A stretch of 54,189 nt of DNA from an uncultured Gammaproteobacteria bacterium (GTDB lineage: Bacteria > Patescibacteriota > Microgenomatia > Levybacterales > UBA12049). Positions within the stretch are counted from its first letter, which is position 1. The number at the start of each line of letters is the position of its first letter. Below the pieces are notes generated by a model that had not been told where the DNA came from, did no database searches, and saw nothing but the letters and a program-made list of their open reading frames with translations. The position numbers were made by a program, and so were the translations under genes. Positions 7,510 through 30,182 of the stretch are shown here, one piece after another. The DNA is taken from positions 1 to 54,189 of the forward strand of contig CAZTFV010000002.1 in the NCBI GenBank assembly GCA_964613075.1, in the 5' to 3' direction.

Positions 7510-9522
7510 TTAGGGGGTAATTTTCTCATACACATCAAGCTCGCCTATATTTTCTTTAAATTTGTAATCATTAACCATCGTTTTAAGTAGATAGTATACT
7601 ATTTTACCCTCCCTTGTTTTATCTTTATCGACAAATATATATTTATCTCCACGATTTACTACTGATCTTGCTAAGTTTTTTAGGTCACGCTCATCAGTAT
7701 AATGTTGTAGATTATTGCTTTCTACATTATTGACCGAGTTTAATTCAATTAAGTACCAGGTATCAAAAATCGAAAGAATTGTTATTCCATAAGATTTAAT
7801 ATATTGACCATATTTATTATTTGAGTTACTTTTTAACTTGCTAACTGTTTTCTTACCAAGAATAGAGTTTAAGTGTACCCTTTCAGAAACATTTGCACTT
7901 CTAATTAATTCCGGTATGTGAAATAAATTTTCATATTTAATATTTTTAATCCCTGGCAAAAATAAAAAATAAGAAGGTAGCGCTAAAGCTAGTGAAATGA
8001 TAATTCCGGTTATTATCTTGATTTTAATATCTGATAAACTTTTAGTATATTGGATAATAATTAGAATTATATAAAACAAAGATAGGCTAAAAGGGACAAA
8101 AACATGGTGCAAATTATTTAAGTGGCTTCTTCCCACAAAATAAGTAAACTGAAATATTCCGTAAAAGACTATAAAGGAGAAAACACGGTTTTCTGATAAC
8201 TTATCTTTACCAAAATTAAATTTTCTCTGCGTAAATAATAAACATAAACTTACGGCATAAGTTAAAATGAAAAACCATGGCCAGGAAGAATTAGGAAAAA
8301 TCATTAATCCATAACCATGTAAATAATATACTGAGTCAGAGATGTAATAACTCCAATTAGGATTAATGTTTAAAATAAAGATATAAAAACCATTGATTAA
8401 TAAAAATACAACTCCCACAGAGACTGCTAATTTTAACAATGTTTTTTTAATAATACTAAACGTATTTTTTGCGTCTTCTTGCAAACTGTCAAAAATCTTG
8501 TAAGAAAAATACGCAAGCAAAACGTAAATGCCATTGTCAAAAATCCAAAATACGCTTACACTTATAAGAAGAAGTGTTATTGCTTCCCAAACTTTAGAGA
8601 ATTTAGAATGGCTATTTTTAACTTCATTAATAATTGATAAACAAATAAGCATCCACATACCAAATCTTAGAGCATTTGTTTGCAAATAATATCCATGCCC
8701 TGCTGTAATGTGGTTAGCAAATATAATAAATATTAAAACAAAAAGCGCATAATATTTATTTTTGTACAAAAACTGTGCTATTGCTAAGAGCGCTGTAAAG
8801 CCTCCAATGATGGCAACAGAATTTAATATTGTTAGATTGGTTAAGTTTAATTTAACAAAGTAAAATGGTATCGACAAAAATATGATTGATAAAAAACCAT
8901 ATTGAGAAATACTGTTATACAAAAGATACTTTCCATGCAGAATATCATTTATTGGACCGGCATAATAAGCATAATCATAGAAGTTTAATTTTTCAAAATT
9001 TAAAGTTAATATAGCTATTGAAAGAAATGATAAAATATAAAATACTATTCCAGCCTTTTTTTCAAAACTCTTATTAAAGATTAAAAAAAAGTAAGAAAAT
9101 ATAAGTAAAAGAGATATAATTATAAACGTAGTTAATTTAAAGTTATTCTCTGGAAAAAATCCTGTTTCATTAAGTTCCCAAACAAATACAGGATTACGGT
9201 AACCCTCTATAACAAAAAAAACTAGGTAAGCAATTTGAATAACTAGTAAGAAGAAAAAAAATAGCTTATTAAGTTTTATCTTCGAGTTGTCGTTTAAAAA
9301 AGGGAGCGAGGAAAACCTCCGTTTAAAAGATAGCCAATAGAGGAGAGAAAATACAGTAAATATTATAAAAAATATAAAATAATAAGTTTGGACCTCGGAT
9401 TCAGCGTATGAGGAAAACAAAGATAACATAGGATTATAAACTTTAAGTATTGTTAGAATAACAACTAGGCAGATTAATAGCAGAAATATAAAATAGAAGA
9501 AAACCTTGCGTTTTATTAACAT
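7510..9522 (-). CDS. Polytopic membrane protein, function unknown (possible polymerase or GT-C-type enzyme)
   Basis: 670 aa, extremely hydrophobic and very AT-rich. It is the only large gene with real intergenic gaps on both sides (98 and 168 nt). ATG at 9522 is preceded by aaaggtaaa. Confidence 0.6.
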   Translation of the reverse strand: MLIKRKVFFYFIFLLLICLVVILTILKVYNPMLSLFSSYAESEVQTYYFIFFIIFTVFSLLYWLSFKRRFSSLPFLNDNSKIKLNKLFFFFLLVIQIAYLVFFVIEGYRNPVFVWELNETGFFPENNFKLTTFIIISLLLIFSYFFLIFNKSFEKKAGIVFYILSFLSIAILTLNFEKLNFYDYAYYAGPINDILHGKYLLYNSISQYGFLSIIFLSIPFYFVKLNLTNLTILNSVAIIGGFTALLAIAQFLYKNKYYALFVLIFIIFANHITAGHGYYLQTNALRFGMWMLICLSIINEVKNSHSKFSKVWEAITLLLISVSVFWIFDNGIYVLLAYFSYKIFDSLQEDAKNTFSIIKKTLLKLAVSVGVVFLLINGFYIFILNINPNWSYYISDSVYYLHGYGLMIFPNSSWPWFFILTYAVSLCLLFTQRKFNFGKDKLSENRVFSFIVFYGIFQFTYFVGRSHLNNLHHVFVPFSLSLFYIILIIIQYTKSLSDIKIKIITGIIISLALALPSYFLFLPGIKNIKYENLFHIPELIRSANVSERVHLNSILGKKTVSKLKSNSNNKYGQYIKSYGITILSIFDTWYLIELNSVNNVESNNLQHYTDERDLKNLARSVVNRGDKYIFVDKDKTREGKIVYYLLKTMVNDYKFKENIGELDVYEKITP

Positions 9523-9690: not shown

Positions 9691-10533
9691 ATGAGTCCCA
9701 CAAAACATAACGATGTTTCACTCGCGAAATATGCCCATGAGATTAAAAAAGATATTCTTGAAATTTCCTATCATGCACATGTAGGACACATTGGCTCTGC
9801 TTTTTCCATCGCAGATATTCTTACAGTTCTTTATCACGAAGTTCTTCGTATCTCTCTTAAAACTCCGCAAGACCCAAAAAGGGATCGTTTTATTCTCAGC
9901 AAAGGCCATGCCGCCTCTGCCCTTTATGCAACCCTTGCATCAAGAGGGTTTTTTACGAAAAAGGCTATGCGGAGCTTTTGTCGGGATGGAGGACAATTTG
10001 GAGTACATCCTGTTATCGACCCAACTTCAGGAATAGAGTTTTCAACAGGCAGTCTTGGGCATGGACTCTCGGTTGGCGCCGGGCTTGCAATGGGCCTTGC
10101 AAGAAATCATTTTAAAAGTATTCCACGAGTTTTTGTTTTGTTGTCAGATGCTGAACTGAATGAGGGAAGTACGTGGGAAGCAGTAATGTTTGCATCACAC
10201 CATAAACTTTCGAATCTTGTCGCTATAGTAGATGACAATAACTATCAGGCATTCGGAAAAGCATCAGATGTTCTTAATCTACAACCACTCCGTATGAAAT
10301 GGGAAGCGTTTGGCTGGACTGCAAAGGTTTGCGATGGGCACTCTCTTTCTGACCTCTCAAATAATCTTTCAACAATTCCCTTTCGAAAAGGCAAGCCGAG
10401 TATACTTATCGCAAAAACAAGAACAGCAAAAGGAATTTCTTTTCTTGAAAACAAGCAAGAAGCTCATTATCTTCCTCTTGATGATGCAAAGTATAAAAAA
10501 GCGCTAAAAGACATTGAAAGGAATTTGAGGTGA
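9691..10533 (+). CDS. Transketolase-family ThDP enzyme, N-terminal (PP-domain) subunit, copy A
   Basis: HVGHIGSAFSIADIL, RDRFILSKGHAASALYA, GSLGHGLS. ThDP/Mg motif LLSDAELNEGSTWEA...IVDDNN. Start moved to the first ATG (MSPTKH); the tracked TTG at 9661 would overlap the promoter element. Confidence 0.85.
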   Translation: MSPTKHNDVSLAKYAHEIKKDILEISYHAHVGHIGSAFSIADILTVLYHEVLRISLKTPQDPKRDRFILSKGHAASALYATLASRGFFTKKAMRSFCRDGGQFGVHPVIDPTSGIEFSTGSLGHGLSVGAGLAMGLARNHFKSIPRVFVLLSDAELNEGSTWEAVMFASHHKLSNLVAIVDDNNYQAFGKASDVLNLQPLRMKWEAFGWTAKVCDGHSLSDLSNNLSTIPFRKGKPSILIAKTRTAKGISFLENKQEAHYLPLDDAKYKKALKDIERNLR

Positions 10534-11465
10534 GAGATGCATTTATACAAACACTCTTAAAAGAAGCAAAAAAAGATAGGAACATTATGCTCCTCACGGG
10601 AGACTTAGGGTTCAGTGTACTTGAAGAGTTTCGCGATACCCTCCCTCATCAATTTCTTAACGTAGGAGTCGCAGAACAAAATCTAATGGGAGTTGCTTGT
10701 GGCCTTGCACTTTCAGGTCATAAAGTTTTTGCATATACTATTGCAACTTTTGCAACAATGAGACCGTTTGAACAAATACGAACAGATATTGCTTCACATA
10801 ATGTAAAAGTGGTGATTGTTGGAACAGGAGGAGGACTTTCTTACGGGCATGACTCAATAACCCATCATTCTGTGGAAGATATAGCGCTTATGAGAGGAAT
10901 ACCAAATATGACAGTTTTGTGTCCTGCCGACCCTATAGAAGCTCAATGGGCTACCCGTGAGGCTCTCAGGATTCCTCAACCTGTTTACCTTCGTCTAGGA
11001 AAAAAGGGGGAGCCTGCGCTGTATTCAAAAAATCCTGTTCTTAAAGTAGGAAAAGCAAGCATACTCAAGAAGGGACGAAAGGTGGCAATTCTTGCGACAG
11101 GAAATATAGTCGCAAATGCAATCGCCTCAGCAAAACTGCTTCAAGAAAACGGAATAAATCCCCTCGTTGCAAGCATCCATACGATAAAACCAATGGATAG
11201 AAAATTTATAGGTTTAGTTATGCAAAAATTTCCCCTTATTGTAACAATCGAAGAGCATAATACAACAGGAGGACTCGGAAGCACTATTGCGGAAATTATA
11301 TCTGAAGAGGGTAAAAAAGTCCGACTTATTCGATTGGGAGTGCCCGATCGATTCTTATTTGAAATAGGTTCACAAAGCTACCTAAGAAATATTGTCGGTA
11401 TTTCTCCGGAAAAGATAGCAAAGAGGATAGAAAAAGAGTTAAGAAAAACAGTATTGTATACTTAA
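10530..11465 (+). CDS. Transketolase-family ThDP enzyme, C-terminal (Pyr plus C-terminal domain) subunit, copy A
   Basis: LTGDLGFSVLEEF, NVGVAEQNL, MRPFEQIRTDI, ITHHSVEDIALMRGIPNM. GTG start overlaps the upstream TGA by 4 nt. Confidence 0.85.
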   Translation: MRDAFIQTLLKEAKKDRNIMLLTGDLGFSVLEEFRDTLPHQFLNVGVAEQNLMGVACGLALSGHKVFAYTIATFATMRPFEQIRTDIASHNVKVVIVGTGGGLSYGHDSITHHSVEDIALMRGIPNMTVLCPADPIEAQWATREALRIPQPVYLRLGKKGEPALYSKNPVLKVGKASILKKGRKVAILATGNIVANAIASAKLLQENGINPLVASIHTIKPMDRKFIGLVMQKFPLIVTIEEHNTTGGLGSTIAEIISEEGKKVRLIRLGVPDRFLFEIGSQSYLRNIVGISPEKIAKRIEKELRKTVLYT

Positions 11466-11468
11466 AAT

Positions 11469-12437
11469 ATGGGGAACAAAAAAATATCTGCTATCATCGC
11501 TTGCTATAGAGACAGTCAAGCAATTCCCCTCATGTATGAACGTCTTGTAAGAGTGTTCAAAAAAATAGGCGTTGATTATGAAATTATCTTTGTAAATGAC
11601 GGCAGTCCTGATAATTCAGAAGAAGTAATCCGGGAAATTGTTGAGAAAGATCCCCATGTAATCGGTATCAACCACTCCCGAAATTTTAGTTCCCAAATGG
11701 CATTTACGAGCGGAATGAATATCTCAACAGGAAATGCAGTGGTACTTCTTGATGGAGACTTACAAGATCCTCCTGAGCTGATTAAAAAACTATATCACAA
11801 GTGGCTTGAAGGATATGATGTCGTATACGGAATACGAACAAAAAGAGAAACATCATTATATATGGCCATTCTTTACAAACTCTTCTATCGTTTATTTCAT
11901 AAACTGTCTTATATTCAAATTCCTCTAGATGCGGGCGATTTTTCTCTTATTGATAGAAAAGTCGTAGAAGTTCTTAAACAGTTTCCGGAAAGAGATAGAT
12001 TTTTGCGAGGACTCAGAGCATGGGTTGGATTTCGACAAACAGGGATTCCATACGTGAGACCTGAGAGAATGTTTGGTAGAACAACAAACAATTTTCTCAA
12101 AAACCTCAACTGGGCTAGTAAAGGAATCTTCTCATTTTCCTATGTTCCTCTTCAATTCACATCGCTTGCTTCCTCTATCATATTTCTCATTGCGCTTGGG
12201 GGAATCATCTACCAACTTATTGCACGATTTATATTCAATAATGCTCCACAAGGCGTAACTATTATTCTGATCACTGTCCTCTTTCTTGGCGCGATTCAAT
12301 TACTCGGGATAAGCGTTCTTGGTCAATATGTTGGGAAAATTTTTGAAGAAGTGAAACAAAGGCCTCAGTATGTGGTAAAAAGTATTGTTCGAAACGAACG
12401 CCCTAAAAGGAAAAAAAGAGATTATGTATCGGACTAA
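11469..12437 (+). CDS. GT2 polyprenyl-phosphate sugar synthase (ArnC/GtrB/Dpm1-like) with two C-terminal TM helices
   Basis: ISAIIACYRD, IIFVNDGSPDNS, LLDGDLQDPPELI, then two hydrophobic C-terminal spans (LASSIIFLIALGGIIYQLI, VTIILITVLFLGAIQLLGISVLG). Confidence 0.8.
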   Translation: MGNKKISAIIACYRDSQAIPLMYERLVRVFKKIGVDYEIIFVNDGSPDNSEEVIREIVEKDPHVIGINHSRNFSSQMAFTSGMNISTGNAVVLLDGDLQDPPELIKKLYHKWLEGYDVVYGIRTKRETSLYMAILYKLFYRLFHKLSYIQIPLDAGDFSLIDRKVVEVLKQFPERDRFLRGLRAWVGFRQTGIPYVRPERMFGRTTNNFLKNLNWASKGIFSFSYVPLQFTSLASSIIFLIALGGIIYQLIARFIFNNAPQGVTIILITVLFLGAIQLLGISVLGQYVGKIFEEVKQRPQYVVKSIVRNERPKRKKRDYVSD

Positions 12438-13845
12438 GTGGATTGTGTTGGTAGCCATTTTTTTTCTTTCTTATTTGTCTTTTGGCTCTATAATTCATTT
12501 TAATTTTGCCCAAGACGATTTTACTATTCTTTACTATGTCCAAAACAATACAATACTATTCTACCCATACTATGTGGCATCGCTTATATTTGTTCCTTTG
12601 TACAATGTTTTTAAGCTCAACGCATCATACTACTATACTCTGTCTCTCCTTTTATTCACAGGTGTCGGGCTGAGCCTCTACTATTTTTCTTTTGTCCTTT
12701 TCAAGGATAAAATAATTGCTTTTGCTGCAGTTGTTTTTTTTATATTCTCATTCGCGGGATCTGATGCATTATACACGATGAACGTTGGAATACTTAGGAG
12801 TATATTCTTAATTCTTGAGCTCTGGATACTTTCCTTTTACATAAAATATCTAACCACAAAAAGAAATATGCATTTCTACTTTGCTTTTTCTCTCTATGTA
12901 CTCGCGCTTTTTCTTTTTCCGTATATAGCCTACATTTTGCTCTTGTTTATTTTATTGCTCTACGTTTTTATTGGGAAAAAACGACCTACGGCTCTTTTTG
13001 TAAAACAATTATTTCTATTAATTCTACCGTATCTATTTGTATACGGATTACTTCCATATCTCCCCTTCTTGCAAACTGCAGAACATCATCTTCCTCCTCT
13101 ATTTGCACACCTAAAACTAGAGTCCATCGATAATGTAGTACAAACAATAAAGAATGTCATTATTCCAAGCACTTTTTCTTTCACTACCGGTACTGCATAT
13201 CTTATCTCTTTGCTGATAATTCTCATTGTCCATAAAAACAGACTCATACTATTATCTCTTCTCTTTTTACTCATTCCAATTCTGGGATTCGTTTTAATCT
13301 TCGGAGAGAATTATGGAACATTTGACAGGTATTTATATGTAATTCGCCCTTTTTTTGCATTACTTCTGGCTGCGCTATTATTTTATAAATTTTCATCTCC
13401 TCAATTTTCATTCAGAAGACTTCTTATTATCATCTTCATTCTTCCCGTTTTTCTCTTTCACACAATCGAAAATGTAAAATATCAAAAAGAAATTGTCACT
13501 GACAGAAACTACTCGAAATATCTTTTTAACACCATTCTCGCCTCCCATCCAAACATCCAAGACTATACAATTTTTTTCTTCAATTCGTCTGACGTTCCGA
13601 CAAGAAATCGTCTCTCACGGGCTACTGATGTTGGGGCACTTCCTCACAGTGGATCGTTTGCCGTTTATTATAAAAAGGATTATGAAAAAATAGGCGTTGT
13701 TTTTTACTGTAATACATATGCCTCATTATTGGAAACATGGAAAGCGAATTCACCCAAAACGATTTACTTTACATTACAAGGTGAGAAGCTAGCGGAAAAA
13801 AATCTTGGAGACATCGCATCAGATTGTCAAACTACTCAACAATAA
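12424..13845 (+). CDS. Polytopic membrane protein, GT-C-like candidate acceptor-side transferase paired with the ArnC-like GT2
   Basis: Start set at ATG 12424 (MYRTKWIVLV), a 14-nt overlap with the GT2. Acidic motif NFAQDDFTILYY lies right after TM1. About ten hydrophobic spans plus a soluble C-terminus. Confidence 0.5.
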   Translation: MYRTKWIVLVAIFFLSYLSFGSIIHFNFAQDDFTILYYVQNNTILFYPYYVASLIFVPLYNVFKLNASYYYTLSLLLFTGVGLSLYYFSFVLFKDKIIAFAAVVFFIFSFAGSDALYTMNVGILRSIFLILELWILSFYIKYLTTKRNMHFYFAFSLYVLALFLFPYIAYILLLFILLLYVFIGKKRPTALFVKQLFLLILPYLFVYGLLPYLPFLQTAEHHLPPLFAHLKLESIDNVVQTIKNVIIPSTFSFTTGTAYLISLLIILIVHKNRLILLSLLFLLIPILGFVLIFGENYGTFDRYLYVIRPFFALLLAALLFYKFSSPQFSFRRLLIIIFILPVFLFHTIENVKYQKEIVTDRNYSKYLFNTILASHPNIQDYTIFFFNSSDVPTRNRLSRATDVGALPHSGSFAVYYKKDYEKIGVVFYCNTYASLLETWKANSPKTIYFTLQGEKLAEKNLGDIASDCQTTQQ

Positions 13846-13847
13846 CA

Positions 13848-14786
13848 CTACATCATCGTTTTATTTTTCATAAACGTATAAACAGCGCTGGCGATTTTTT
13901 CCGGTGTTATTCCATGATAATTGAGTAATGTATTATATTCTGCTGATAGTGGAGTAAATTGATTTTTCAACCCAAGGCGTAATACGTTAGGAAAAGGATT
14001 TATCCAGGAATCGTTTACTGTCTCAAGAACTGCCGTGCCAAATCCTCCGTTAATTCTATGTTCTTCAAGCGTGCAGAGAAAGGGGTACTTTCTCACAATC
14101 GAACGGATCAATGTCGTATCGAGAGGATTGATTGTTGAGAAAACATATAAAGAAGGAAAAATATTTTTCCTCTCTAATTGAGAAACTGCCTCCAGTGCAT
14201 GGACGATTTGTGGACCCGTAATCAGAAGAGCTATTTCTTTCCCTTTCCTAATCCTCATCCCTTTTCCTAATACAAATTTTCTCTTTCTCAATGGAACAGT
14301 CATTTCTGGATTGCGTCCGATACGGAGATACACTGGCCCCCTATATCTTGCTATAACTTTTGTAGCAGCATATGTCTCGTCTTGGTCAAATGGCGCTACG
14401 ATAACCATGTCAGGAAGCATTCTCATAAGCGCTATATCTTCCATAGAATGATGGGTAGGACCGGCTTTGGTGTAGGATAGTCCCCCACCTACTCCCACAA
14501 TTTTTACATTCAACTTCTGCAGACTGACATCATTTCTGATCTGTTCAAATGGTCGCATCGTCATAAAGGTCGCTATCGAATAAATAAACGGGGTATAGCC
14601 GGTCGTTGAAAGACCGGCTGCAACTGTCACGAGATTTGCTTCCGCAACACCAATATTTAAGAATCTCTCCGGGAATGCATATTTAAATTCTTCAAGAATG
14701 TTAAATCCCAAATCGCCGGTAAGAAGCATTATTCTCTTATCTTTTTGAGCAACTTCACACAGCGCTTTTACAAATGCTTTCCTCAT
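13848..14786 (-). CDS. Transketolase-family ThDP enzyme, C-terminal subunit, copy B
   Basis: LTGDLGFNILEEF, NIGVAEANL, MRPFEQIRNDV, PTHHSMEDIALMRMLPDM. Its stop is 2 nt from the stop of the converging plus-strand gene. Confidence 0.85.
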   Translation of the reverse strand: MRKAFVKALCEVAQKDKRIMLLTGDLGFNILEEFKYAFPERFLNIGVAEANLVTVAAGLSTTGYTPFIYSIATFMTMRPFEQIRNDVSLQKLNVKIVGVGGGLSYTKAGPTHHSMEDIALMRMLPDMVIVAPFDQDETYAATKVIARYRGPVYLRIGRNPEMTVPLRKRKFVLGKGMRIRKGKEIALLITGPQIVHALEAVSQLERKNIFPSLYVFSTINPLDTTLIRSIVRKYPFLCTLEEHRINGGFGTAVLETVNDSWINPFPNVLRLGLKNQFTPLSAEYNTLLNYHGITPEKIASAVYTFMKNKTMM

Positions 14787-15604
14787 AACGCCTCAAGCTC
14801 CTTTTTTGCAGTCATATATTCTTCTCTTGTAAAGATCTTGTAATGTCCTATTAATTGGTCCTCAATACACGATACTCCTTTTCCTGATATCGTATGCGCT
14901 ATCACAACTGTAGGTTTTTGTTTTTTTAATGGAATTTTGTCAAATACTCTCTTGAGTTTTCTGATGTTATGACCATCAACCTCAACAACTTCCCAGCCAA
15001 ATGTCTTCCACTTATCAGCGAACGGTTCTAAAAGCGTTACATCATTTGTTGCGCCAAAACATTGCCATTTGTTATAGTCGATAATTACTGTAAGATTATC
15101 TAATTGTAATCGCGGAGCAAGAAACGCTGCCTCCCATACAGACCCCTCACCGCATTCTCCATCGCTTATAAGAACAAAAACATTTCCCCTTTCCCTCTGT
15201 AAACGCAGTCCATGTGATATGCCGATCCCAAATGCAAGTCCATGACCCAGTGACCCGCTCGTCATTTCAATACCCCTCTCATGCATCTCTGGATGTTCAC
15301 ATAACCCGTTGTTCTGTCCAAAAGAAAACAATTTTCTTGAGGACATGATGCCTTTCTTATATAACACTGCATACAGCGCTGCAGCAGCATGTCCTTTACT
15401 TAGGATAAATCTATCTCGAAAGTTACTATCTCTATTAGTAGCGGTGATATTAAGTTTCGTGAAATAGAGAACGCTTAAGATATCTGAAATGGAAAGGGCA
15501 GATCCAACATGACATGTTCTTGCTTTGTATGAGATTTCAAGCGTTAAAAGTCTCACTTGCTTTGCAAATGCTGTAAGCCCTTTGAGAGTGTACTTTTTAT
15601 CCAT
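14783..15604 (-). CDS. Transketolase-family ThDP enzyme, N-terminal subunit, copy B
   Basis: CHVGSALSISDIL, RDRFILSKGHAAAALYA, GSLGHGLA. ThDP motif LISDGECGEGSVWEA...IIDYNK. 4-nt overlap with its C-terminal subunit gene. Confidence 0.85.
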   Translation of the reverse strand: MDKKYTLKGLTAFAKQVRLLTLEISYKARTCHVGSALSISDILSVLYFTKLNITATNRDSNFRDRFILSKGHAAAALYAVLYKKGIMSSRKLFSFGQNNGLCEHPEMHERGIEMTSGSLGHGLAFGIGISHGLRLQRERGNVFVLISDGECGEGSVWEAAFLAPRLQLDNLTVIIDYNKWQCFGATNDVTLLEPFADKWKTFGWEVVEVDGHNIRKLKRVFDKIPLKKQKPTVVIAHTISGKGVSCIEDQLIGHYKIFTREEYMTAKKELEAL

Positions 15605-16523
15605 GAGTTTTGTACCATTCTATTGTCTTGAGTAGTCCCGCGTTAAGAGTCGTGCTCGCTCTAAAACCAAGTTTGTTTCTTGTTTTGTAAGTACTTGCTT
15701 TCCAATGATACGTATCCCATGACCTTCCCGGGTAAACGTTGAGTTTAATAGGAACATGAACTCCTACGAGTGATCGTACCTTCTCCGCAAGTTCTTTAAT
15801 CGTCGTTTGCTTACCTGTCCCAATATTGAATACTTCTCCTGCCGCAACCTTTCTCTGTAAAGCGTGTATAAATGCATCTACAACATCATCAACATATATA
15901 AAATCCCTGGCTTCTTTTCCCGTGGCAAGAAGAATTGGTTTTTTCTGTAAGGCTGTTTCAATTACTGAACGAACCAGTCTTCCTTTTTCCTCATATGGTC
16001 CATAAACACTAAACAGGCGAAAAATTATTAACGGATGCTTGGTTGTCTTTGCAAATGTTTGACAAAGATATGTTTGTGAGGCCTTCATCGCGCCATAATA
16101 ACTGTTGGGTTCAAGATAATCGCTCTCGTTCATCGGTTTTTCTTTTTTTCCATATTCGGAAGAGCTCCCGGTAACAACCAGCTGGTGGTATGGAATGTCT
16201 TTCAGGCTTTCAAGAAGGTTGAGCGTCCCGTGAATATTCACATCCACCATCTTTCTCGGATCCTCTTGCGTATGATACGCACCATACGTTGCCAAATGGT
16301 AGACGCCGTAGGGTTTAATCCGCTTGAAAAGACTAGTGAGTTTTTTTTTGTCTTCCAATAATCCTTCGTGAACGGTAAGCTTGTTTAAAACACCAGAAAG
16401 CCGCCAAAGATTTCCATTTTTCCTTGTGATGATATGGATCCTGGCTTGCGATTTTAATAATCTTCGAGTTAGATTTGCACCGACAAACCCCCCCGCGCCT
16501 GTTATAACAATCGTTTTCTTCAT
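15597..16523 (-). CDS. NAD(P)-dependent sugar epimerase/dehydratase/reductase (extended SDR)
   Basis: Rossmann motif IVITGAGGFVGANL, catalytic YYGAMKAS (YxxxK), ARDFIYVDDVVDAF. Confidence 0.8.
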   Translation of the reverse strand: MKKTIVITGAGGFVGANLTRRLLKSQARIHIITRKNGNLWRLSGVLNKLTVHEGLLEDKKKLTSLFKRIKPYGVYHLATYGAYHTQEDPRKMVDVNIHGTLNLLESLKDIPYHQLVVTGSSSEYGKKEKPMNESDYLEPNSYYGAMKASQTYLCQTFAKTTKHPLIIFRLFSVYGPYEEKGRLVRSVIETALQKKPILLATGKEARDFIYVDDVVDAFIHALQRKVAAGEVFNIGTGKQTTIKELAEKVRSLVGVHVPIKLNVYPGRSWDTYHWKASTYKTRNKLGFRASTTLNAGLLKTIEWYKTHG

Positions 16524-16526
16524 CCT

Positions 16527-17966
16527 TTAGTTTTCTCTCCGCCCAATTTGATATGGATCTGGAATCTTTCTTCTAGTAATGTAATCATTTTTAGGGTCAA
16601 AAATCATTTCCCACGCCTCACCCTGGTTGAGATATTCACTTTCTTTCAGTCTTTCGTAATCATTGCTATCTAGGGCTTTATCTGCCTCATCGTATCCCGC
16701 AATAAGTGTTCGTATTGCATCACCATGACCAACTACAACAGCATGAAGCGAGCCATTCTCTTCTCTTTGGCTAACAATCCGCTCTATAGTATCCCTATAT
16801 CTTTCTTGCAGATCACCTAAGCTTTCATTCCCGGCTGCGACGAGATTTGGAGTATAAACATTTCCTCCAGTCTCTGCAAAAAAGTCCTCCATTGTTTGAT
16901 ATTGCATAACGCTTGGCGCCCGAACGTCTCTGAGCTCTTTTTTCAAAACCACCGATATGTCATCCCTTACTGATCCAAGTTTTTTCAACTCGTCAACCAA
17001 TCCATTCACGGATAAGTGTGCGCGGTAAAGATCGCTGGAATAGACCTCTCCTACTTTTATTCTCCGCCGAGTAATTGCTCTTGCAACCTGCCTCATTTGC
17101 TCATGACCTTCCGGCATAATACCAACCGGTGTCTCAGAAAACTCATCCAAATTATACGGCCTTCCGTTATTATCCGTTTTACCGTGACGAACGATATACA
17201 CAATGGCTGGAGTAAACGAAACTATCCCCTCACGTACATCTTCAAAAGATATTCCAAGGCCTTTCAGCCAATCGTACGTTTGTTGCATTATCTCTCTTTG
17301 ATATTGTTCTGCCTCACGCATATGCTCCAATCCATATTTTTCAGTGTCAAAGAACGCCTGATTTGGCTGTGGATAACGCCTTGTTTCCGTATCCATATAT
17401 TTCATAAAATCCTCCATTGTGAACAAATCCCCATCAGGAGTACGTTTGCCAAGATTATCCGCAAAATTGAAGATTCGCTGCTCTGCTGACAAATCAGCAA
17501 AAGGTGTCCTTTTTTTCAGGATATCATCCACATCAACCATCCCTCTCCCAATACGATCCGTTACGCCAAGACGCTTTAGTATACTTCTTGTAACGAGATC
17601 ATTGGTATGATATGCGCTGGGTAGCGCTAATCGACCGATATCGTGAAAGAGTCCGCGGATTTCCGCTGCAACTGGGTCAGCATCCACTCCTTTTTCAGTC
17701 AATGCATTGCTTAATTCTCGAGCCAATGCTGCTGATGCATATACGTGTTCCCACCAGGACGGAAAAACATCGGGATGAGCAAAGTTTGCTGACTCTTTAA
17801 GGAACTGATACGCTGTTGCGACATCTTCAGCACCTAAGGACTGACTGGATAATAGGTTTGATTCGCGAAACAATGATTCTCCTGTTTCTATAATCCTATC
17901 CCTGCGATGCAGCATATCTTCTCTTTTTGCCAGCCTCATTTCCGTCTTTTCATTTACATTACTCAT
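16527..17966 (-). CDS. Fusion protein: N-terminal HD-superfamily phosphohydrolase domain plus C-terminal histidine phosphatase (phosphoglycerate-mutase-like) domain
   Basis: HD part: WWEHVYASAALA, GLFHDIGRLALP, NFADNLGK. Histidine phosphatase part: VYIVRHGKTDNN (RHG) and AVVVGHGDAIRTL. The protein is acidic and R/E/D-rich, unlike its K/I/F/N-rich neighbours, and the DNA is visibly more GC-rich. Confidence 0.65.
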   Translation of the reverse strand: MSNVNEKTEMRLAKREDMLHRRDRIIETGESLFRESNLLSSQSLGAEDVATAYQFLKESANFAHPDVFPSWWEHVYASAALARELSNALTEKGVDADPVAAEIRGLFHDIGRLALPSAYHTNDLVTRSILKRLGVTDRIGRGMVDVDDILKKRTPFADLSAEQRIFNFADNLGKRTPDGDLFTMEDFMKYMDTETRRYPQPNQAFFDTEKYGLEHMREAEQYQREIMQQTYDWLKGLGISFEDVREGIVSFTPAIVYIVRHGKTDNNGRPYNLDEFSETPVGIMPEGHEQMRQVARAITRRRIKVGEVYSSDLYRAHLSVNGLVDELKKLGSVRDDISVVLKKELRDVRAPSVMQYQTMEDFFAETGGNVYTPNLVAAGNESLGDLQERYRDTIERIVSQREENGSLHAVVVGHGDAIRTLIAGYDEADKALDSNDYERLKESEYLNQGEAWEMIFDPKNDYITRRKIPDPYQIGRREN

Positions 17967-19005: not shown

Positions 19006-20088
19006 CTATAGGCGTTCTTTGAGACGTATGAATGCTTCATGGATTCGACTCGAATCCAACGGTCGATATTCATTCACCTTCTTTTGAAAATGCAACTTCC
19101 CAACTGCTTTCGCAAGACTTATTCGAAGATAATAGATCCAGTAAGATCGTTGAAAATCCTCAGGAAGGTTTCTTTCAGACGTGTACCCTTGCAAGAAATA
19201 GTCAAACCATGAAGGATGAGAGAATGTACCTGAACCGAAATACGCAAGATCATAGATTGGATCACCAGAGCATGCGTCTTCCCAATCAACAATTGCTGTT
19301 ATCTTCTTGTTTTTTACGAAAACATTATGATTTGCTAGATCGCCATGAAGTAACACCGGATTGACTTTTGTTAGATGATCAAATGCCCTATCCAAAATAG
19401 TATGTATCTCTTCTCCTTCTTGTCTCCGTAGAGTTTTGTGTTTAACTAAAACATTTATATGAGAATCAAGTTGAGTTCGCAAATAGTCTTCCCATCGTTT
19501 ATGAATACCTGTCAGCCTCTTTCCGGTCTTAAGCTTTGAAATCTGGAATGGACCATAGTCACATGTCTCAACTCTATGAATTTTTGCTACAAATTTCCCA
19601 AATTGAATGAAAAGTTCGTTAGCATTTTCGTTCCTTTTTACAATTTCTGATAATAACTCACCACGTACCGCAGTAGCGATACAATAATCAAAAGGGGCCG
19701 TTAATTTTGATAAGTCAATGAAGATCACTTTAACAGAGGGTACCATGTTCTTTTCCATCACACCCATTATCGATTTCTCCAAGATAAAATGAAGAGCGGA
19801 GAAATATACATGATGCTGTAATCGTATTGCATATTTTTCCTGACCCTTATGAAATTCCAAAATAGTATGAAATGTTCCTTTGTTAATTGTTATCTTTCTC
19901 ACTTTTCCTCCATGTTTTTCAACAATCAACCTAAAGAGAGAATAAAGGGCCTGCAGATTTAGTTTTTCCAAAGAAAACTGTGAAATAATTGATGGAATAT
20001 CACTTTTGAAGATAAAGCACTTCTTTTGGAGATTTGTGAATTCCTTTATCTTTTGAGAAGTCAACCCAACGATACTAGAGGTGGTCAT
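19006..20088 (-). CDS. APH/choline-kinase-fold phosphotransferase (possible anomeric sugar kinase)
   Basis: Catalytic loop LLHGDLANHNVFV (HxDxxxxN) and metal-binding IVDWEDACSGDPIYDLAY. 360 aa. Confidence 0.7.
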   Translation of the reverse strand: MTTSSIVGLTSQKIKEFTNLQKKCFIFKSDIPSIISQFSLEKLNLQALYSLFRLIVEKHGGKVRKITINKGTFHTILEFHKGQEKYAIRLQHHVYFSALHFILEKSIMGVMEKNMVPSVKVIFIDLSKLTAPFDYCIATAVRGELLSEIVKRNENANELFIQFGKFVAKIHRVETCDYGPFQISKLKTGKRLTGIHKRWEDYLRTQLDSHINVLVKHKTLRRQEGEEIHTILDRAFDHLTKVNPVLLHGDLANHNVFVKNKKITAIVDWEDACSGDPIYDLAYFGSGTFSHPSWFDYFLQGYTSERNLPEDFQRSYWIYYLRISLAKAVGKLHFQKKVNEYRPLDSSRIHEAFIRLKERL

Positions 20089-21044: not shown

Positions 21045-21746
21045 CTAGATGAAAAATGAATGTTTTTTAAAATAATAATGAAGCATGTACGTAATCATTT
21101 CCCTTACTGATTTCAGATTCGTCGTTGACATTCCATGCGACCTTTTCCCAGATTTTGCAGGAATTTCCAACCACCTATAGCCCTGTGACTTCATCTTTAG
21201 CATCAATTCTAAATCAAAAGTAATATTGTATGAAGAAAGTGAGATATGGTCAAACACTTCATTTTTTAGAACTTTTGGGGTTCCGTTTATGTCCTGGCTG
21301 GGAATCCGAAACATCATATACGAGAGCATATTATAAAAACGAGAGTTTATAAATCGTGTTGCATTTTCTCGTTTGACTCTTTTTATTTTCACCATACTCA
21401 CATCTGTTTTCAGTATAAGATCGTACACTTCAACCAAATATTTCGAATCTACTTGTCCATCAGTAACCATATACGAAATATATTGCCCTTGTGCGTACCT
21501 CAGACCTTTTCGAACTGCGTTACCCCATCCTTTTTTTGATTGAACAACGAGGAGCTGCTTATATTTTTTCTTTAAGCTCCTTAAAAGTTGGTAACTATTG
21601 TCAGTTGACCCGTTCTCCACGCAAATAAGTTCAAAAGAAATTGAATGTTTGTGGAGGAGTTCTATCAGTTCGCTTAAAAATACTTCTATACCCCCTTCTT
21701 CATTGTGGACAGGAAGAATTACTGAAAGATCTACTTTTTTCTTCAT
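21045..21746 (-). CDS. GT2, Dpm1-like soluble polyprenyl-phosphate glycosyltransferase candidate
   Basis: LSVILPVHNEEGGI, LICVENGSTDNS, KKGWGNAVRKGL, MVTDGQ. Confidence 0.7.
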   Translation of the reverse strand: MKKKVDLSVILPVHNEEGGIEVFLSELIELLHKHSISFELICVENGSTDNSYQLLRSLKKKYKQLLVVQSKKGWGNAVRKGLRYAQGQYISYMVTDGQVDSKYLVEVYDLILKTDVSMVKIKRVKRENATRFINSRFYNMLSYMMFRIPSQDINGTPKVLKNEVFDHISLSSYNITFDLELMLKMKSQGYRWLEIPAKSGKRSHGMSTTNLKSVREMITYMLHYYFKKHSFFI

Positions 21747-23191
21747 GGAGATGACGCTTCATTTAAAAAGTAAATTTCTATTCCATTGAAGCTTTTCTGT
21801 ACCGTGTAGTTTTTATGAAGGTATGAGATAAATTTCCAATCCTTCAATTCCGGCCAATTCGTTGGCAAATTTTTATCCCACACAACGACTTTAGGCGGAT
21901 CTTTCGTAATGTCTGCAAATGTTTCGTCATACGGATAATATACCCATGGCAAACCATCTATATATTTATTATGATGTTTTCTATTTGAAAGACGCATAAT
22001 CGTATTGCTTGCCGTGTTGAAAATTTTTATATCTTGAGAAGTGTTTTTAGCTAACCACTCTGCCACCTTCATGTCATTTGGACTATCCTCATAAATATAA
22101 GGCAGGAGGCTTATTCCGTAATTTTTGATAAATGACTCATATTGTTTCAAAAAATAACCATAGAAAGCAATGAAACTCAGAGCGCCGATTATAAGAATCG
22201 CAAATGAAATATTTTTTCTCTGTATATTTGTTTTCTCAGAAAGTGTTAAAAGTACATAGGCAGCCGCAATGCTTACCAAAGGAAGTGCTGTGTTAAGCCG
22301 GTAAGACCAGAATGAGGGAAGTAAGGTTGGGATCATTCCAATAATCGATATAACAATTAAAAATTTAATCTGCCTTGGGATTTGGGTTATTTTTAATAGC
22401 GCAAAAGGAATAACTATAGATGCATATAAAGAAAGCATTCTCATTCCTTCGTTAAACCCCCATTTCCCGGCAGCCTCACGATAAATAAAAAGGTTGAAAT
22501 AAATCGCATAATAATAGTAGTCATCCAAAGCATTATTAAAAAACAGATATAAAACCAGAAATAAATAACTGATAAAAACTCCGAAAAAGTACACAAAGGC
22601 TTTTTTAAGTATTCCTTTCTTTAGATAAAAAACCACAAGCGTTACTGTAATAGCGCCAATAATTCCTATCGATGTTTGCTTTGTAACCAAAGCTGCTCCT
22701 GAAAAAACTCCAGATAAAAACAATAACTTTGCATTATTACCTTTGCCGAATTGCCAAAAGAAAAGAACCGATAGAAGTATAAAAAGGCTTACTAATGCTT
22801 CTCCTATTTGGGTATTCATAAAAAGCGGAAATAAAAGAATAATATAAATATAAAATGCCGTAACTGCCAATTTTAAAGATTCTTTTCTTAATCCAAAGAA
22901 GATAGTTAACGAAATCACAAGATACATGACCAGAGAAAAAACCCGCAGTACAAAGGCATGAATACCAAAAAGCTTAAAGACTCCTGCAAGTAAAAAAATA
23001 TCCAGCGGGTTCCGAATCCACTCAAAATCTCTATACGGCACTTCTCCGTTTAGAATAAGCCATGGCCTGTGCATTACTTCACTTCCCACCTGAAAAGGAA
23101 GAAGAAAGATATTAAAGAAAATCCAAAAAATCCCAGGAACTATTAACAGTAAATATTTTTTTGTCAAATCACTCAAATAGTACACTATCAA
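21743..23191 (-). CDS. Polytopic membrane protein, GT-C-like (ArnT/PMT-style) candidate
   Basis: 482 aa with more than ten hydrophobic spans. The loop after TM1 is acidic (GSEVMHRPWLILNGEVPYRDFEW). The start is uncertain: TTG at 23191 or GTG at 23185, with no ATG before TM1. Confidence 0.5.
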   Translation of the reverse strand: MIVYYLSDLTKKYLLLIVPGIFWIFFNIFLLPFQVGSEVMHRPWLILNGEVPYRDFEWIRNPLDIFLLAGVFKLFGIHAFVLRVFSLVMYLVISLTIFFGLRKESLKLAVTAFYIYIILLFPLFMNTQIGEALVSLFILLSVLFFWQFGKGNNAKLLFLSGVFSGAALVTKQTSIGIIGAITVTLVVFYLKKGILKKAFVYFFGVFISYLFLVLYLFFNNALDDYYYYAIYFNLFIYREAAGKWGFNEGMRMLSLYASIVIPFALLKITQIPRQIKFLIVISIIGMIPTLLPSFWSYRLNTALPLVSIAAAYVLLTLSEKTNIQRKNISFAILIIGALSFIAFYGYFLKQYESFIKNYGISLLPYIYEDSPNDMKVAEWLAKNTSQDIKIFNTASNTIMRLSNRKHHNKYIDGLPWVYYPYDETFADITKDPPKVVVWDKNLPTNWPELKDWKFISYLHKNYTVQKSFNGIEIYFLNEASSP

Positions 23192-24178: not shown

Positions 24179-24859
24179 TTACCTTGAATACTTCCAAAGA
24201 GCAGTAATTAATTTAAACGCATGATGCCAGCGAATATTTTTCCCTTCTTTATGTGAACGAGGGAGGTATGCAATAGGGACTTCTCTTACTTTAAATCCGG
24301 CTCTGACGATCTTTGCAGTCAGTTCTGCTTCTATTTCAAATCCGTTTGTTTCTATCGGTTTTATCTTGTTATAAACTCTTCTTGTCATTACTTTTGCTCC
24401 TGTTATAGAGTCGGTCAGATTCCTTCTGAGAATTATTCTAAATAACGTATTTATAAATACCCCTCCCAAGAAGTATGTTTGGGAAGAATATTTGTTTTTC
24501 TTATTTAATCGTCTCGATCCATACACCACATCTGAAGAGTTATTCAAAATTGGTTCTAATAATACGGGGATATTATCACAACTATATTCCAGATCATCAT
24601 CTTGAATAAGCAAAATATCTCCAGTTGCTTTTTTAAAACCAGTTCTTAAAGCCCCGCCTTTCCCAGTATTTTTTTTGTGATATACATAGATGATTCCTTT
24701 CATCTTTTTAATTCTCTCATAGGAAGTACCTAAAGAAGCATCATTAACAATGATAATTTCTTTTTCGACCTTAGGAACCTTTATTTTCTTTATTTCTTTT
24801 AACAACGAGGTAAGTCTCTGGCTGTTATTATACGAAGGAATAATAATTGATAACTTCAT
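24179..24859 (-). CDS. GT2, Dpm1-like soluble polyprenyl-phosphate glycosyltransferase candidate
   Basis: LSIIIPSYNN, IIIVNDAS, NTGKGGALRTGF, IQDDDLEYS. Confidence 0.7.
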   Translation of the reverse strand: MKLSIIIPSYNNSQRLTSLLKEIKKIKVPKVEKEIIIVNDASLGTSYERIKKMKGIIYVYHKKNTGKGGALRTGFKKATGDILLIQDDDLEYSCDNIPVLLEPILNNSSDVVYGSRRLNKKNKYSSQTYFLGGVFINTLFRIILRRNLTDSITGAKVMTRRVYNKIKPIETNGFEIEAELTAKIVRAGFKVREVPIAYLPRSHKEGKNIRWHHAFKLITALWKYSR

Positions 24860-26510: not shown

Positions 26511-26869
26511 CTTCTTCCTTTTACTTCTTTTACGATTAATGCAATAGTAACGTATGTAAAAAGATAATAAATTATTTCACCCAAAAAATCTGATAACGTC
26601 TTATATCCTATTGTTTCTGCCATGCCGGCAATCACAAACAGAATCACTACCAAAAACAAGATCATAAGGGGTCTAATATTAAAGATGAGAATAAGAATAA
26701 GAAAAATTACTAAGAAAAAAAACGTTTTAGGTACAAGAATGTTTATATATGGCAATTTCATGACGAATAGAACACTTATACTTACGACAATCGCCAAGGT
26801 TATTTTTGCAAGGTTTGCATTCCAAAAATGCATGATCTCCCGTAACAATTTACTAACGCTACTTTTCAT
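26507..26869 (-). CDS. Small four-span membrane protein, unknown function; last gene of the long minus-strand array
   Basis: 120 aa with 3-4 hydrophobic spans. Overlaps the upstream gene by 11 nt. Its stop overlaps the stop of converging 25455..26510 (TTAA). Confidence 0.5.
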   Translation of the reverse strand: MKSSVSKLLREIMHFWNANLAKITLAIVVSISVLFVMKLPYINILVPKTFFFLVIFLILILIFNIRPLMILFLVVILFVIAGMAETIGYKTLSDFLGEIIYYLFTYVTIALIVKEVKGRS

Positions 26870-29800: not shown

Positions 29801-30182
29801 AAACGAAGAACACAATACTTTTTGTATCTTTGTTATAAAAATACGAAAAGTATATGATAAGAAAAGGAGAAAGAAGTAATACGTACCAGAAAATAACCAA
29901 AACAAATTGATTTAGATATAAATTCCTTGAAATACTTTCAAGGATGAATTCTGGCAAATGTATTGGAATAGCACCAGGATTGACGTACTTGGAACCTCCA
30001 AAATTAATTGTGTCAGACCAGACGTAAAATAATGAAGCAAAAAAATCTTTGCTATTTAGCCTGTATCCAACATCATGTCCCAAAATTAATTTACCATCTA
30101 AGTTCCATGAGAAAACAATGACAGTTATTATAAATAAAATAAAAAGAATCGGGAATACAATGTATTGTATTTTTTTAAGCAT
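26859..30182 (-). CDS. Very large polytopic membrane protein, GT-C-like candidate (AftD/DUF3367-like) with a ~600-aa extracytoplasmic domain and a C-terminal TM anchor
   Basis: 1107 aa. Has an N-terminal TM, then GHDVGYRLNSKDFF..YVWSD, about 12 hydrophobic spans and PGFAIFRTPFYKF. A long soluble region ends in VTGFIVSGVSFVFFILLFL. Paralog of 313..2388. Confidence 0.55.
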   Translation of the reverse strand: MLKKIQYIVFPILFILFIITVIVFSWNLDGKLILGHDVGYRLNSKDFFASLFYVWSDTINFGGSKYVNPGAIPIHLPEFILESISRNLYLNQFVLVIFWYVLLLSPFLIIYFSYFYNKDTKSIVFFVFAAVLYAINFFNLQGWGVFWRTRFSTQIIVPIFFAVLFKTLIDKKVSYPLVILLIFASALLNGGGSPPLYAPLLLVWGITFLFFLAVDNKRKRLIFTFITFTLLYFLGFALVSAFWMYPYGFSIIESYSEYVERVGGLGSAIKWLEVVAAGSSFINIFRLQGFPSWYDNPSHPYAQYFRNNEILVFASFIFPILAASSYLFAKTSLQRRFVLLFYVFILVGAFFTSGSHPPLGWLYKTLFQHVPGFAIFRTPFYKFGPLVWFGFSVLAAFTLYQIGVWLRNKTRLRIAYGAYIIVVIFTILAYHFPYFSSAFFKWDKDFSTLVHIPGYVFDFKKWSEENKHTVNGRILLAPQLEKTFNADAYTWGYWSLDSLQSMISSLSFVEGQTGDPVVSNMISELHKALVEGNNKKITQLSTLLDIEYILLKQDTFYNYKGRETTNPVKIRKALENNISISHVQSFGKWDLYRILEYKPSRFFTVNTMVEFVGDKNQINREIDFAQNAFIIAGDKKNALYEDTLDIQKVIILPSLIDTASQGDMIMQKSIPRVYPDSFLYPLVEWKRNQEKKHLEDNAQIINYYLGSTAKYIHELAYLERDDKSGVDDQVEKILESLDALHGLLAISDSRDSSSMQQYFTVMDYLNVYEGRMVNLSRSYIGKNVLIIMKIRDLKAFVTKISNRTVECVFFCQIYSVDFSTKGQYEIFVHKDTLPTIQSLYLDNQALIDSAPSNLQQESQNDWVSIAKIEKPQEVGFLKVVRKENQLADTLLLNGQSRTVAINESRYSFNLAYNYVIENDNAYVFTLHFKNNSSGNTWSESKEISGSKSGFDTIYLHHEGDILDKISVIPLSVNARSPEAYIDNIRIIPNTELDLVFVKINKNSKSTLQPVMYGKDSPSRWYVNSLPDGLRYLISSQKYNQGWSIISGKSSHIRVNGDFNAWVMQDVPKDKIVVEFTPQRNLVTGFIVSGVSFVFFILLFLTRRKYEK

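Follow-up and report, generated by a model that had tools for sequence, protein, structure and literature searches.

Two diverged split transketolase pairs in a bacterial glycan locus, candidates for two-carbon transfer onto nucleotide-activated keto-sugars

Why would a contig of glycan genes carry two diverged copies of a split transketolase? Transketolase (TK) belongs to the textbook core of metabolism, where a ketose donor and an aldose-phosphate acceptor are regarded as its settled substrate rules. The NCBI contig CAZTFV010000002.1 of an uncultured bacterium, here called the window and analysed over its whole length of 54,189 bp, so that statements on contig content cover those 54 kb, encodes two N-subunit/C-subunit pairs of the TK family, A and B, on opposite strands in converging operons. 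With a confidence that falls somewhat short of an even chance, we read both, from sequence comparison, as thiamine diphosphate (ThDP)-dependent alpha2beta2 TK-type enzymes of glycan precursor synthesis, which would transfer a two-carbon (C2) unit onto a nucleoside diphosphate (NDP)-keto-sugar. The four subunit genes, which an earlier note on this DNA had placed from the letters alone, were recovered at the same positions in the list of open reading frames (ORFs) and by their Pfam domains:

9691..10533, forward strand: pair A N subunit (TKN_A), 280 amino acids (aa); Pfam Transketolase_N 133 bits; ThDP/PP domain
10530..11465, forward strand: pair A C subunit, 311 aa; Pfam Transket_pyr 120 bits and Transketolase_C 86 bits
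14783..15604, reverse strand: pair B N subunit (TKN_B), 273 aa; Pfam Transketolase_N 137 bits
13848..14786, reverse strand: pair B C subunit, 312 aa; Pfam Transket_pyr 121 bits and Transketolase_C 73 bits

The ATG at 9691 agrees with a called 280-aa gene of identical sequence (P0126), and the N and C genes of each pair share 4 nt (10530-10533 in A, 14783-14786 in B). Both pairs have the split two-subunit TK architecture, in which a gene for the PP domain is followed by one for the Pyr and C-terminal domains, as in the split-chain TK of Carboxydothermus hydrogenoformans (6YAK/6YAJ), whose ThDP/Mg motif, cofactor Glu and catalytic His set they also have. This enzyme is the top PDB match both of TKN_B (6YAK, 207 bits) and of the C subunit (6YAJ/6YAK, 197 bits). 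The identity between A and B, 42% for the N subunits (114/272) and 43% for the C subunits (129/302), together with their positions in sister subclades of the tree described below, supports the earlier view that the pairs are homologous, heavily substituted and not the result of a recent duplication.

We compared catalytic and substrate-pocket residues across 70 N+C pairs drawn from 90 loci, 62 of them non-canonical and eight canonical. The residue numbers of Escherichia coli (Ec) TK were placed on A and B by motif correspondence and are taken here to apply:

Pair A N subunit: GSLGHG (H124), SDAE (S152, D153), N183; catalytic His H33, H73, H106, H259
Pair B N subunit: GSLGHG (H121), SDGE (S147, D148), N178; catalytic His H32, H72, H104, H254
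Pair A C subunit: R2 (Ec R358), S29 (Ec S385), E49 (Ec E411), G100 (Ec H461 position), D108 (Ec D469), H112-H113 (THH), K158 (Ec R520 position)
Pair B C subunit: R2 (Ec R358), N29 (Ec S385 position), E49, G100 (Ec H461 position), A108 (Ec D469 position), H112-H113, R158 (Ec R520)

The ThDP/Mg motif is present in both pairs (SDAELNEG...DDNN in A, SDGECGEG...DYNK in B) with its Asp and Asn invariant, and the equivalents of H26, H66, H100, D155, N185, H261, R358, E411 and H473 are found in A, in B and, with few or no exceptions, throughout the 70 pairs. Because this catalytic core is intact, A and B are most likely working ThDP enzymes. H26 and H261 contact the C1 hydroxyl of the donor in TK structures, and their retention in N subunits of the Transketolase_N type leads us to expect that the unit carried would be glycolaldehyde (dihydroxyethyl) and would not derive from pyruvate. 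The substitutions that recur among the 62 non-canonical pairs include one at Asp469, which in TK reads the C2 hydroxyl of the acceptor:

H461 to Gly: 55/62 pairs, A and B among them
D469 to Leu or Ala: 46/62 pairs; B has Ala, A keeps Asp
R520 to Lys: 38/62 pairs; A has Lys, B has Arg
S385: variable; A has Ser, B has Asn
Gln after TH to His: 53/62 pairs
GSLGQG to GSLGHG: 59/62 pairs
GDG to SDG (first Gly replaced by Ser): 47/62 pairs

Among the 120 relatives closest to TKN_B, 112 also have the GSLGHG block, and nearly all have SDGE. The SDAE/SDGE, GSLGHG and THHS blocks, which had been singled out earlier as deviations, are thus present in the translations and characterise the whole clade, not chance changes in this contig. 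Where canonical TKs, that of C. hydrogenoformans included, read GSLGQG, GDGE and ATH..GEDG.SHQ and have Arg520, the window pairs read GSLGHG, SDG or SDA and VG.GGG...THH, with Gly at the phosphate-binding His. Judged from these alignments, the main departure from canonical TK is the loss of this His461 equivalent and of other substrate-binding residues, not the Ser of SDG, and the aldose-phosphate pocket is, by the same comparison, rebuilt, with one or two cationic residues left at its mouth. The two signatures are not perfectly linked between subunits, since in contig L066 (9674-10843) the N subunit has GSLGHG while its partner C subunit reads ATH..GKDG.SHQ, the canonical form.

The canonical phosphate-orienting residues of TK have been described as an 'RSFHR' set (PMC11659671); A and B keep its R358 and have Gly at H461, B has Asn at S385, and A has Lys at R520. 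In SqwGH, the 6-deoxy-6-sulfofructose TK of the sulfo-TK pathway, the set has become RAFDR (PMC11659671), so that rebuilding it is a known route within the family to a change of substrate. SqwGH resembles the window pairs in being a split TK with a role outside the pentose-phosphate pathway, reached through changed head-group-orienting residues; it differs in being catabolic, with isomerase and reductase genes beside it and free sulfo-sugars as substrates, whereas the window pairs read R-S/N-..-G-K/R and lie in biosynthetic glycan modules.

A neighbour-joining tree of concatenated N and C subunits (574 columns, 100 bootstraps), with the eight canonical pairs included, separated canonical from non-canonical pairs in 74/100 bootstraps and placed A and B on the non-canonical side, set apart from the housekeeping split TKs instead of clustering tightly with them. 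The A-type clade (window A, L088, L089, L090, L028) is sister to the B-type clade (window B, L001-L004, L085-L087), so that, on this tree, A and B are old paralogues inside a glycan-associated clade. Non-canonical pairs occur in many bacterial phyla and in archaea. The closest named relatives of both N subunits are Microgenomates/Gottesmanbacteria proteins from metagenome-assembled genomes (MAGs), at 52-57% identity, and a scan of genome contigs gave relatives that are 40-49% identical among the matches listed. The nearest relatives point to a probable origin of the contig in the candidate phyla radiation; no evidence for Leptospira was found. Bradyrhizobium, Herbaspirillum and Paenibacillus, genera that have ordinary full-length tkt genes, also carry non-canonical pairs among the matches listed; organisms that can be cultured and have a related module are, for example, Herbaspirillum rhizosphaerae, Paenibacillus chibensis and Adhaeretor mobilis. 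A link to bradyrhizose through the Bradyrhizobium relatives was considered and dropped, as no paper connecting its synthesis with these TKs was found.

The gene neighbourhoods separate the two groups as well. Clustered ORFs within 6 kb of the TK genes (<=6 kb) were counted at 66 non-canonical and 13 canonical loci:

Extended short-chain dehydrogenase/reductase (SDR): 40/66 non-canonical, 0/13 canonical loci
DegT aminotransferase: 25/66 non-canonical, 0/13 canonical loci
Zinc-dependent alcohol dehydrogenase (Zn-ADH): 13/66 non-canonical, 1/13 canonical loci
S-adenosylmethionine-dependent methyltransferase: 13/66 non-canonical, 0/13 canonical loci
APH kinase (a cluster distinct from the APH of the B module): 11/66 non-canonical, 0/13 canonical loci
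HldE-like kinase/nucleotidyltransferase: 10/66 non-canonical, 0/13 canonical loci
SIS isomerase: 10/66 non-canonical, 0/13 canonical loci
NTP_transferase: 8/66 non-canonical, 0/13 canonical loci

Canonical split pairs thus differ from the window pairs both in clade and in having no SDR neighbour at any of the sampled loci. Around the non-canonical genes, several module types recur, here written with TKN and TKC for the two subunits and MT for methyltransferase. The A-type module runs (SDR), TKN, TKC, (MT), ArnC/PgfS-like GT2, and a GT2 of this kind comes right after the TK pair both in the window and in L001, L025, L028, L088, L089 and L090, the proteins in L025 and L028 being 60-61% identical to the one in the window. 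The B-type module runs small GT2, Sulfotransfer_3, APH, SDR, (SDR), TKN, TKC, with a PMT_2 enzyme nearby, and recurs in seven contigs of different samples (L001-L004, L085-L087), one of which is a Gottesmanbacteria MAG; the small GT2 heads it in L001, L002, L085, L086 and L087. NTP_transferase-SDR-SDR-TKN-TKC arrays were found in L088, L013, L072 and L027, and SDR-TKN-TKC-MT-GT2 arrays in L088 and L089. Contig L088 (931-11512) holds one of each, the latter A-type, as two split-TK pairs on opposite strands, so that two-pair loci are not unique to the window. In A-type, B-type and NTP_transferase-type modules alike, an SDR with the motif GSSSEYG lies directly upstream of TKN and is translationally coupled to it. 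None of these three module types contains a SIS isomerase, and a nucleotidyltransferase is likewise lacking from the A and B modules; several module types, with neither an isomerase nor an anomeric kinase, combine SDRs with a glucose-1-phosphate (Glc-1-P)-type nucleotidyltransferase or add to the TK pair just one SDR and a polyprenyl-phosphate GT2. Within the 54-kb contig itself, no pentose-phosphate gene, SIS isomerase or nucleotidyltransferase was seen. Given the residues, the tree, the duplication and this context, a pentose-phosphate role for A and B is unlikely, and the neighbours, tree and residues bear out what the earlier note had argued from context.

A further recurring array was observed in L018 (7357-15906, Herbaspirillum rhizosphaerae) and in L007, L011, L032, L049, L009 and L071, in the order SDR, SIS (GmhA-like), GMD-like SDR, TKN, TKC, a 205-218-aa protein, APH, methyltransferase, Zn-ADH and (PhyH), often with an HldE-like gene. 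This SIS/HldE-type array looks like an uncharacterised pathway to an NDP-heptose-derived sugar in cultured proteobacteria.

In the window, the genes that follow pair A in its operon are:

11469..12437, forward strand: ArnC/PgfS-like GT2, of the kind that makes polyprenyl-phosphate sugars, 322 aa; C-terminal part hydrophobic; Pfam Glycos_transf_2
12424..13845 (ORF from 12385), forward strand: multi-helix membrane protein, called gene 473 aa, C-terminal soluble domain

The GT2 gives full-length NCBIfam matches to PgfS (234 bits, cut-off 500) and ArnC (162 bits, cut-off 529), both sub-equivalog, which points to family likeness and to no equivalog. The ArnC-like neighbour named earlier is therefore in place; the GT-C label given to the membrane protein stays tentative, as this protein has no Pfam or NCBIfam match and its AlphaFold model, with about 12 predicted helices, has a predicted local distance difference test score of 45 and is unusable. 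It has only four homologues; AQDDF is conserved after its first helix, the DD being invariant in the alignment of those homologues. GT-C enzymes have an acidic motif in their first outer loop, and it is this DD and the predicted helices alone that make the protein a possible GT-C-type transferase. The two operons converge with 2 nt between their stops (TAA at 13843-13845, reverse-strand stop starting at 13848), and a terminator-like hairpin was sought between them and none found. Transcription from either operon would enter the other as antisense.

Operon B contains, upstream of the TK genes:

15597..16523, reverse strand: extended SDR (GalE/RmlB superfamily), 308 aa; Pfam Epimerase 180 bits; motif GSSSEYG
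16527..17966, reverse strand: fusion of HD and histidine phosphatase (branch 1), 479 aa; Pfam His_Phos_1 64 bits, HD 22 bits
17968..18951, reverse strand: RmlB-like extended SDR, 327 aa; motif SSSEVYG
19006..20088, reverse strand: kinase of the APH/fructosamine-kinase fold, 360 aa; Pfam APH 84 bits, Fructosamin_kin 46 bits
20075..21001, reverse strand: Sulfotransfer_3 family protein, 308 aa; Pfam 51 bits; weak PDB match to the CurM sulfotransferase
21045..21746, reverse strand: small soluble GT2, first gene of the B-type module, 233 aa; Pfam Glycos_transf_2 76 bits
21743..23191, reverse strand: PMT_2 (ArnT/PMT-like GT-C) membrane glycosyltransferase, 482 aa; Pfam PMT_2 34 bits

The SDR at 15597-16523 shares 8 nt with the start of TKN_B, and its PDB matches are generic NDP-sugar epimerases and dehydratases. 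All the neighbours reported earlier for this operon (sulfotransferase, APH kinase, RmlB-like SDR, HD/phosphatase fusion and SDR) are there, but the 4,6-dehydratase activity ascribed to the RmlB-like SDR is in doubt: its top PDB matches are dTDP-glucose 4,6-dehydratases (219 bits), its score on TIGR01181 is 290 bits against a cut-off of 365, and it has S-S-E in place of the T-D-E of RmlB, which sets it outside the dTDP-glucose 4,6-dehydratases as these are defined. The dehydratase catalytic triad is Thr-Asp-Glu with Asp as the catalytic acid, and its replacement by Ser means that dehydratase activity is not assured; rather than dehydrating, the enzyme may only oxidise C4, or may decarboxylate a uronic acid. 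The HD/His_Phos_1 fusion sits between the two SDRs of the window, and a 497-aa His_Phos_1 protein lies in the Gottesmanbacteria contig L086 (1220-2713); the phosphatase is absent from the other B-type modules. The APH kinase is kept in all B-type modules, and their Sulfotransfer_3 orthologues are 56-73% identical, within a small family that has 70 representatives at E<=1e-30 among 1.84 billion. The PMT_2 protein has a 59% identical orthologue in L001, and PMT_2 proteins lie near the module in L085, L086 and L087.

From the observed domains, the catalytic residues kept, the pocket residues lost, the clade and the modules, we infer a donor, an acceptor, an order of steps and a product as follows. 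The enzyme would move a dihydroxyethyl (glycolaldehyde) C2 unit from a common ketose donor onto ThDP, and this unit would then join the carbonyl of an NDP-keto-sugar supplied by the partner extended SDR. The result would be a sugar with a C-glycolyl branch or a longer chain. The tightly coupled SDR would reduce the product, with methylation, phosphorylation or sulfation in some modules. A GT2, that at 11469-12437 for operon A and that at 21045-21746 for operon B, would place the finished sugar on polyprenyl phosphate, and a GT-C-type membrane transferase would pass it to a surface glycan outside the membrane. Action on an NDP-keto-sugar is favoured by the NTP_transferase-SDR-SDR-TKN-TKC and SDR-TKN-TKC-MT-GT2 modules, because in these a sugar phosphate could become an NDP-sugar only through a Glc-1-P-type nucleotidyltransferase.

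Several known systems are related to parts of this scheme. Like the window pairs, AviB1/AviB2, Pau11/Pau12 and EvdU5/EvdS3 are two-subunit ThDP enzymes, with a PP-domain subunit and a Pyr/C-terminal-domain subunit, encoded beside SDRs for NDP-4-keto sugars, and a ketoreductase and methyltransferases follow. These heterodimeric enzymes, which resemble the E1 component of pyruvate dehydrogenase (PDH-E1), are proposed to add a C2 branch at C4 of NDP-4-keto sugars ahead of a ketoreductase (PMC4753412, PMC10338323), and were still called hypothesised in a 2023 paper (PMC10338323). The order proposed here, C2 transfer followed by ketoreduction, parallels their scheme. They differ from the window pairs in having E1_dh alpha subunits, a pyruvate donor (acetyl branch) and a setting in actinomycete antibiotic clusters; A and B have the NDP-sugar context of this type but not its E1_dh subunit, their N subunits being Transketolase_N with the donor-hydroxyl His residues. 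YerE, which the earlier note had put forward as the precedent, likewise places a ThDP-dependent C2 branch on a CDP-4-keto sugar in an O-antigen pathway, yersiniose synthesis, but is a single-chain flavoprotein of the acetolactate synthase type with an unrelated domain order and a pyruvate donor (via PMC4753412, PMC10338323). The note was right to assign YerE to a different ThDP family; the heterodimeric E1-like enzymes are nearer precedents. In the Arn (ArnA-ArnC-ArnT) and Pgf (PgfS-PgfE-PgfM) systems, the NDP-sugar is first modified by an SDR and then attached to polyprenyl phosphate by a GT2, and its transfer on the outside falls to a GT-C/PMT_2 enzyme. The window shares with them its GT2 at 11469-12437, which matches PgfS and ArnC, and the PMT_2 protein at 21743-23191; it differs in that a TK-like enzyme, with a kinase and a sulfotransferase in module B, takes the place of the aminotransferase/formyltransferase or epimerase as modifying enzyme, and in its sub-equivalog scores.

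A number of points weigh against transfer to an NDP-keto-sugar. The acceptors of known TKs are, to our knowledge, aldehydes and not ketones, and we know of no TK-family enzyme with a nucleotide-sugar acceptor and of no glycolyl-branched sugar in bacterial glycans. Operon A consists of the TK pair, the GT2 and the membrane protein only, with no SDR of its own, and the window has no nucleotidyltransferase. Cationic phosphate-holding residues remain (R358 in A and B, R520 in B and Lys in A), which also fits a sugar-phosphate substrate, and the kinase and phosphatase of module B have counterparts in sugar-phosphate pathways. In about ten loci of a distant subclade, the TK pair stands in HldE-SIS-SDR-TKN-TKC-u218-APH-MT-ZnADH arrays. 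Finally, in line with the earlier statement that neither role proposed there is biochemically defined for split TKs of glycan clusters, we found no biochemical characterisation of these or of any clade member in the literature outside subscription journals.

The best of the other explanations, possible although rather doubtful, is the dedicated supply of an unusual ketose phosphate, in which the altered pocket would let the enzyme join the C2 unit to an aldose phosphate outside the standard range, such as a hexose 6-phosphate or the phosphate of a deoxy or amino sugar, to give a heptulose or octulose phosphate, followed by isomerisation, C1 phosphorylation by the APH kinase, dephosphorylation by the His phosphatase, nucleotide activation and SDR modification. 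The roughly ten sister-subclade loci just mentioned speak for it, as TK could there feed an NDP-heptose-type pathway, and so do the kinase and His phosphatase of module B (window and L086), which parallel steps of NDP-heptose synthesis, and the invariant R358 and Arg or Lys at R520. Set against these are the lack of a SIS isomerase in the A-, B- and NTP_transferase-SDR-SDR-TK modules and of a nucleotidyltransferase in the A and B modules, the loss of the phosphate-binding His in 55/62 pairs, and the fact that the tightest partner is an extended SDR of the NDP-sugar type and no isomerase. Of the two roles that the earlier note had offered, the module types thus favour the NDP-keto-sugar, while the SIS/HldE subclade keeps the heptulose or octulose phosphate alive.

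The same fold could also serve a different ThDP reaction, which we consider improbable, namely decarboxylation of pyruvate or hydroxypyruvate with transfer of an acetyl or glycolyl unit, as in DXS- or E1-like enzymes, or a C-C cleavage that shortens a sugar. The C subunits indeed score nearly equally on DXS and TK models (178 vs 191 bits in A, 173 vs 175 bits in B), and the E1-like precedents use pyruvate. The N subunits, however, score 28-29 bits on DXP_synthase_N against 133-137 bits on Transketolase_N, E1_dh appears only as a weak precomputed match in relatives, and the two His residues that contact the donor C1 hydroxyl are conserved. The dxs equivalog model TIGR00204 gives 178 and 173 bits on the C subunits, far from its cut-off of 466, and a DXS-like identity was ruled out by the domain scores and these His residues.

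Slightly less probable again is that TK acts after lipid loading, with the GT2 making a polyprenyl-phosphate sugar that SDR and TK remodel before transfer by the GT-C enzyme (compare DprE1/DprE2 and ArnD). The position of the ArnC/PgfS-like GT2 directly after the TK pair in the window and the six contigs named above would suit such an order, as would the bare TK, GT2 and membrane protein content of operon A and the retained Arg, which could hold the lipid phosphate. Both subunits are, however, soluble, with no membrane-binding segment evident in their translations, many non-canonical TK modules have no nearby GT2, and SDRs of this extended type usually bind an NDP-sugar by its nucleotide.

That A and B are the organism's pentose-phosphate TKs, placed in a glycan locus by chance, is very improbable: split TKs can be true TKs (6YAK/6YAJ were deposited as split-chain transketolase), a single 54,189-bp contig of the genome is at hand and small-genome uncultured bacteria often have few paralogues, but A and B are two diverged copies, each in a conserved glycan module known from several phyla, stand apart from canonical split TKs in the tree, have lost the H461 equivalent (both) and those of D469 and S385 (B), and have non-canonical counterparts in the three tkt-bearing genera named above.

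Returning to C2 transfer onto an NDP-keto-sugar, the clade-wide residue signature and the module catalogue are what is new here, and in sequence terms they describe a widespread TK branch with a recognisable fold, a seemingly intact catalytic core, a rebuilt substrate pocket and a conserved biosynthetic context among nucleotide-sugar genes. A broader claim, which we regard as doubtful, is that the non-canonical GSLGHG/SDG/THH split TKs form a new enzyme class of nucleotide-sugar or lipid-linked-sugar C-glycolyl transferases, which with the coupled SDR would yield undescribed branched or chain-extended sugars, exported, in uncultured bacteria with small genomes, through the polyprenyl-phosphate/GT-C route and phosphorylated or sulfated. 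If true, this would add a reaction class to carbohydrate biosynthesis, imply that uncultured bacteria display sugars on their surfaces that are so far unknown, and give biocatalysis new enzymes for C-C bond formation. By their signature residues and module types, these genes can be separated from housekeeping tkt, whereas annotations now call all of them 'transketolase'.

The remainder of the contig consists of glycan genes, with GT2, GT4, methyltransferases, SDRs, a flippase-like protein and large membrane proteins, and the contig appears to be built around polyprenyl-phosphate monosaccharide donors. The small or ArnC-like GT2s and the large multi-helix membrane proteins, including those of the two operons, are:

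11469-12437: small or ArnC-like GT2
21045-21746: small or ArnC-like GT2
24179-24859: small or ArnC-like GT2
7510-9522: large multi-helix membrane protein
12424-13845: large multi-helix membrane protein
21743-23191: large multi-helix membrane protein (PMT_2)
32229-34004: large multi-helix membrane protein, weakly Alg9-like GT22
33979-36594: large multi-helix membrane protein
50827-52464: large multi-helix membrane protein (PTPS_related)

The protein at 33979-36594 has 871 aa and a C-terminal F5/8 type C (discoidin) domain; similar proteins of 877-884 aa lie directly upstream of SDR-TKN-TKC in L088 and L089 and may belong to the same system. An ORF of 1107 aa without a Pfam match occupies 26859-30182, and comparable unannotated proteins of 1002-1082 aa lie near the B-type module in L004 and L085. 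Between methyltransferases of the biosynthetic locus, 37516-38487 encodes a GH130/GH43-like beta-propeller protein with a weak GINT1_N match, which could be a phosphorylase-fold glycosyltransferase instead of a hydrolase.

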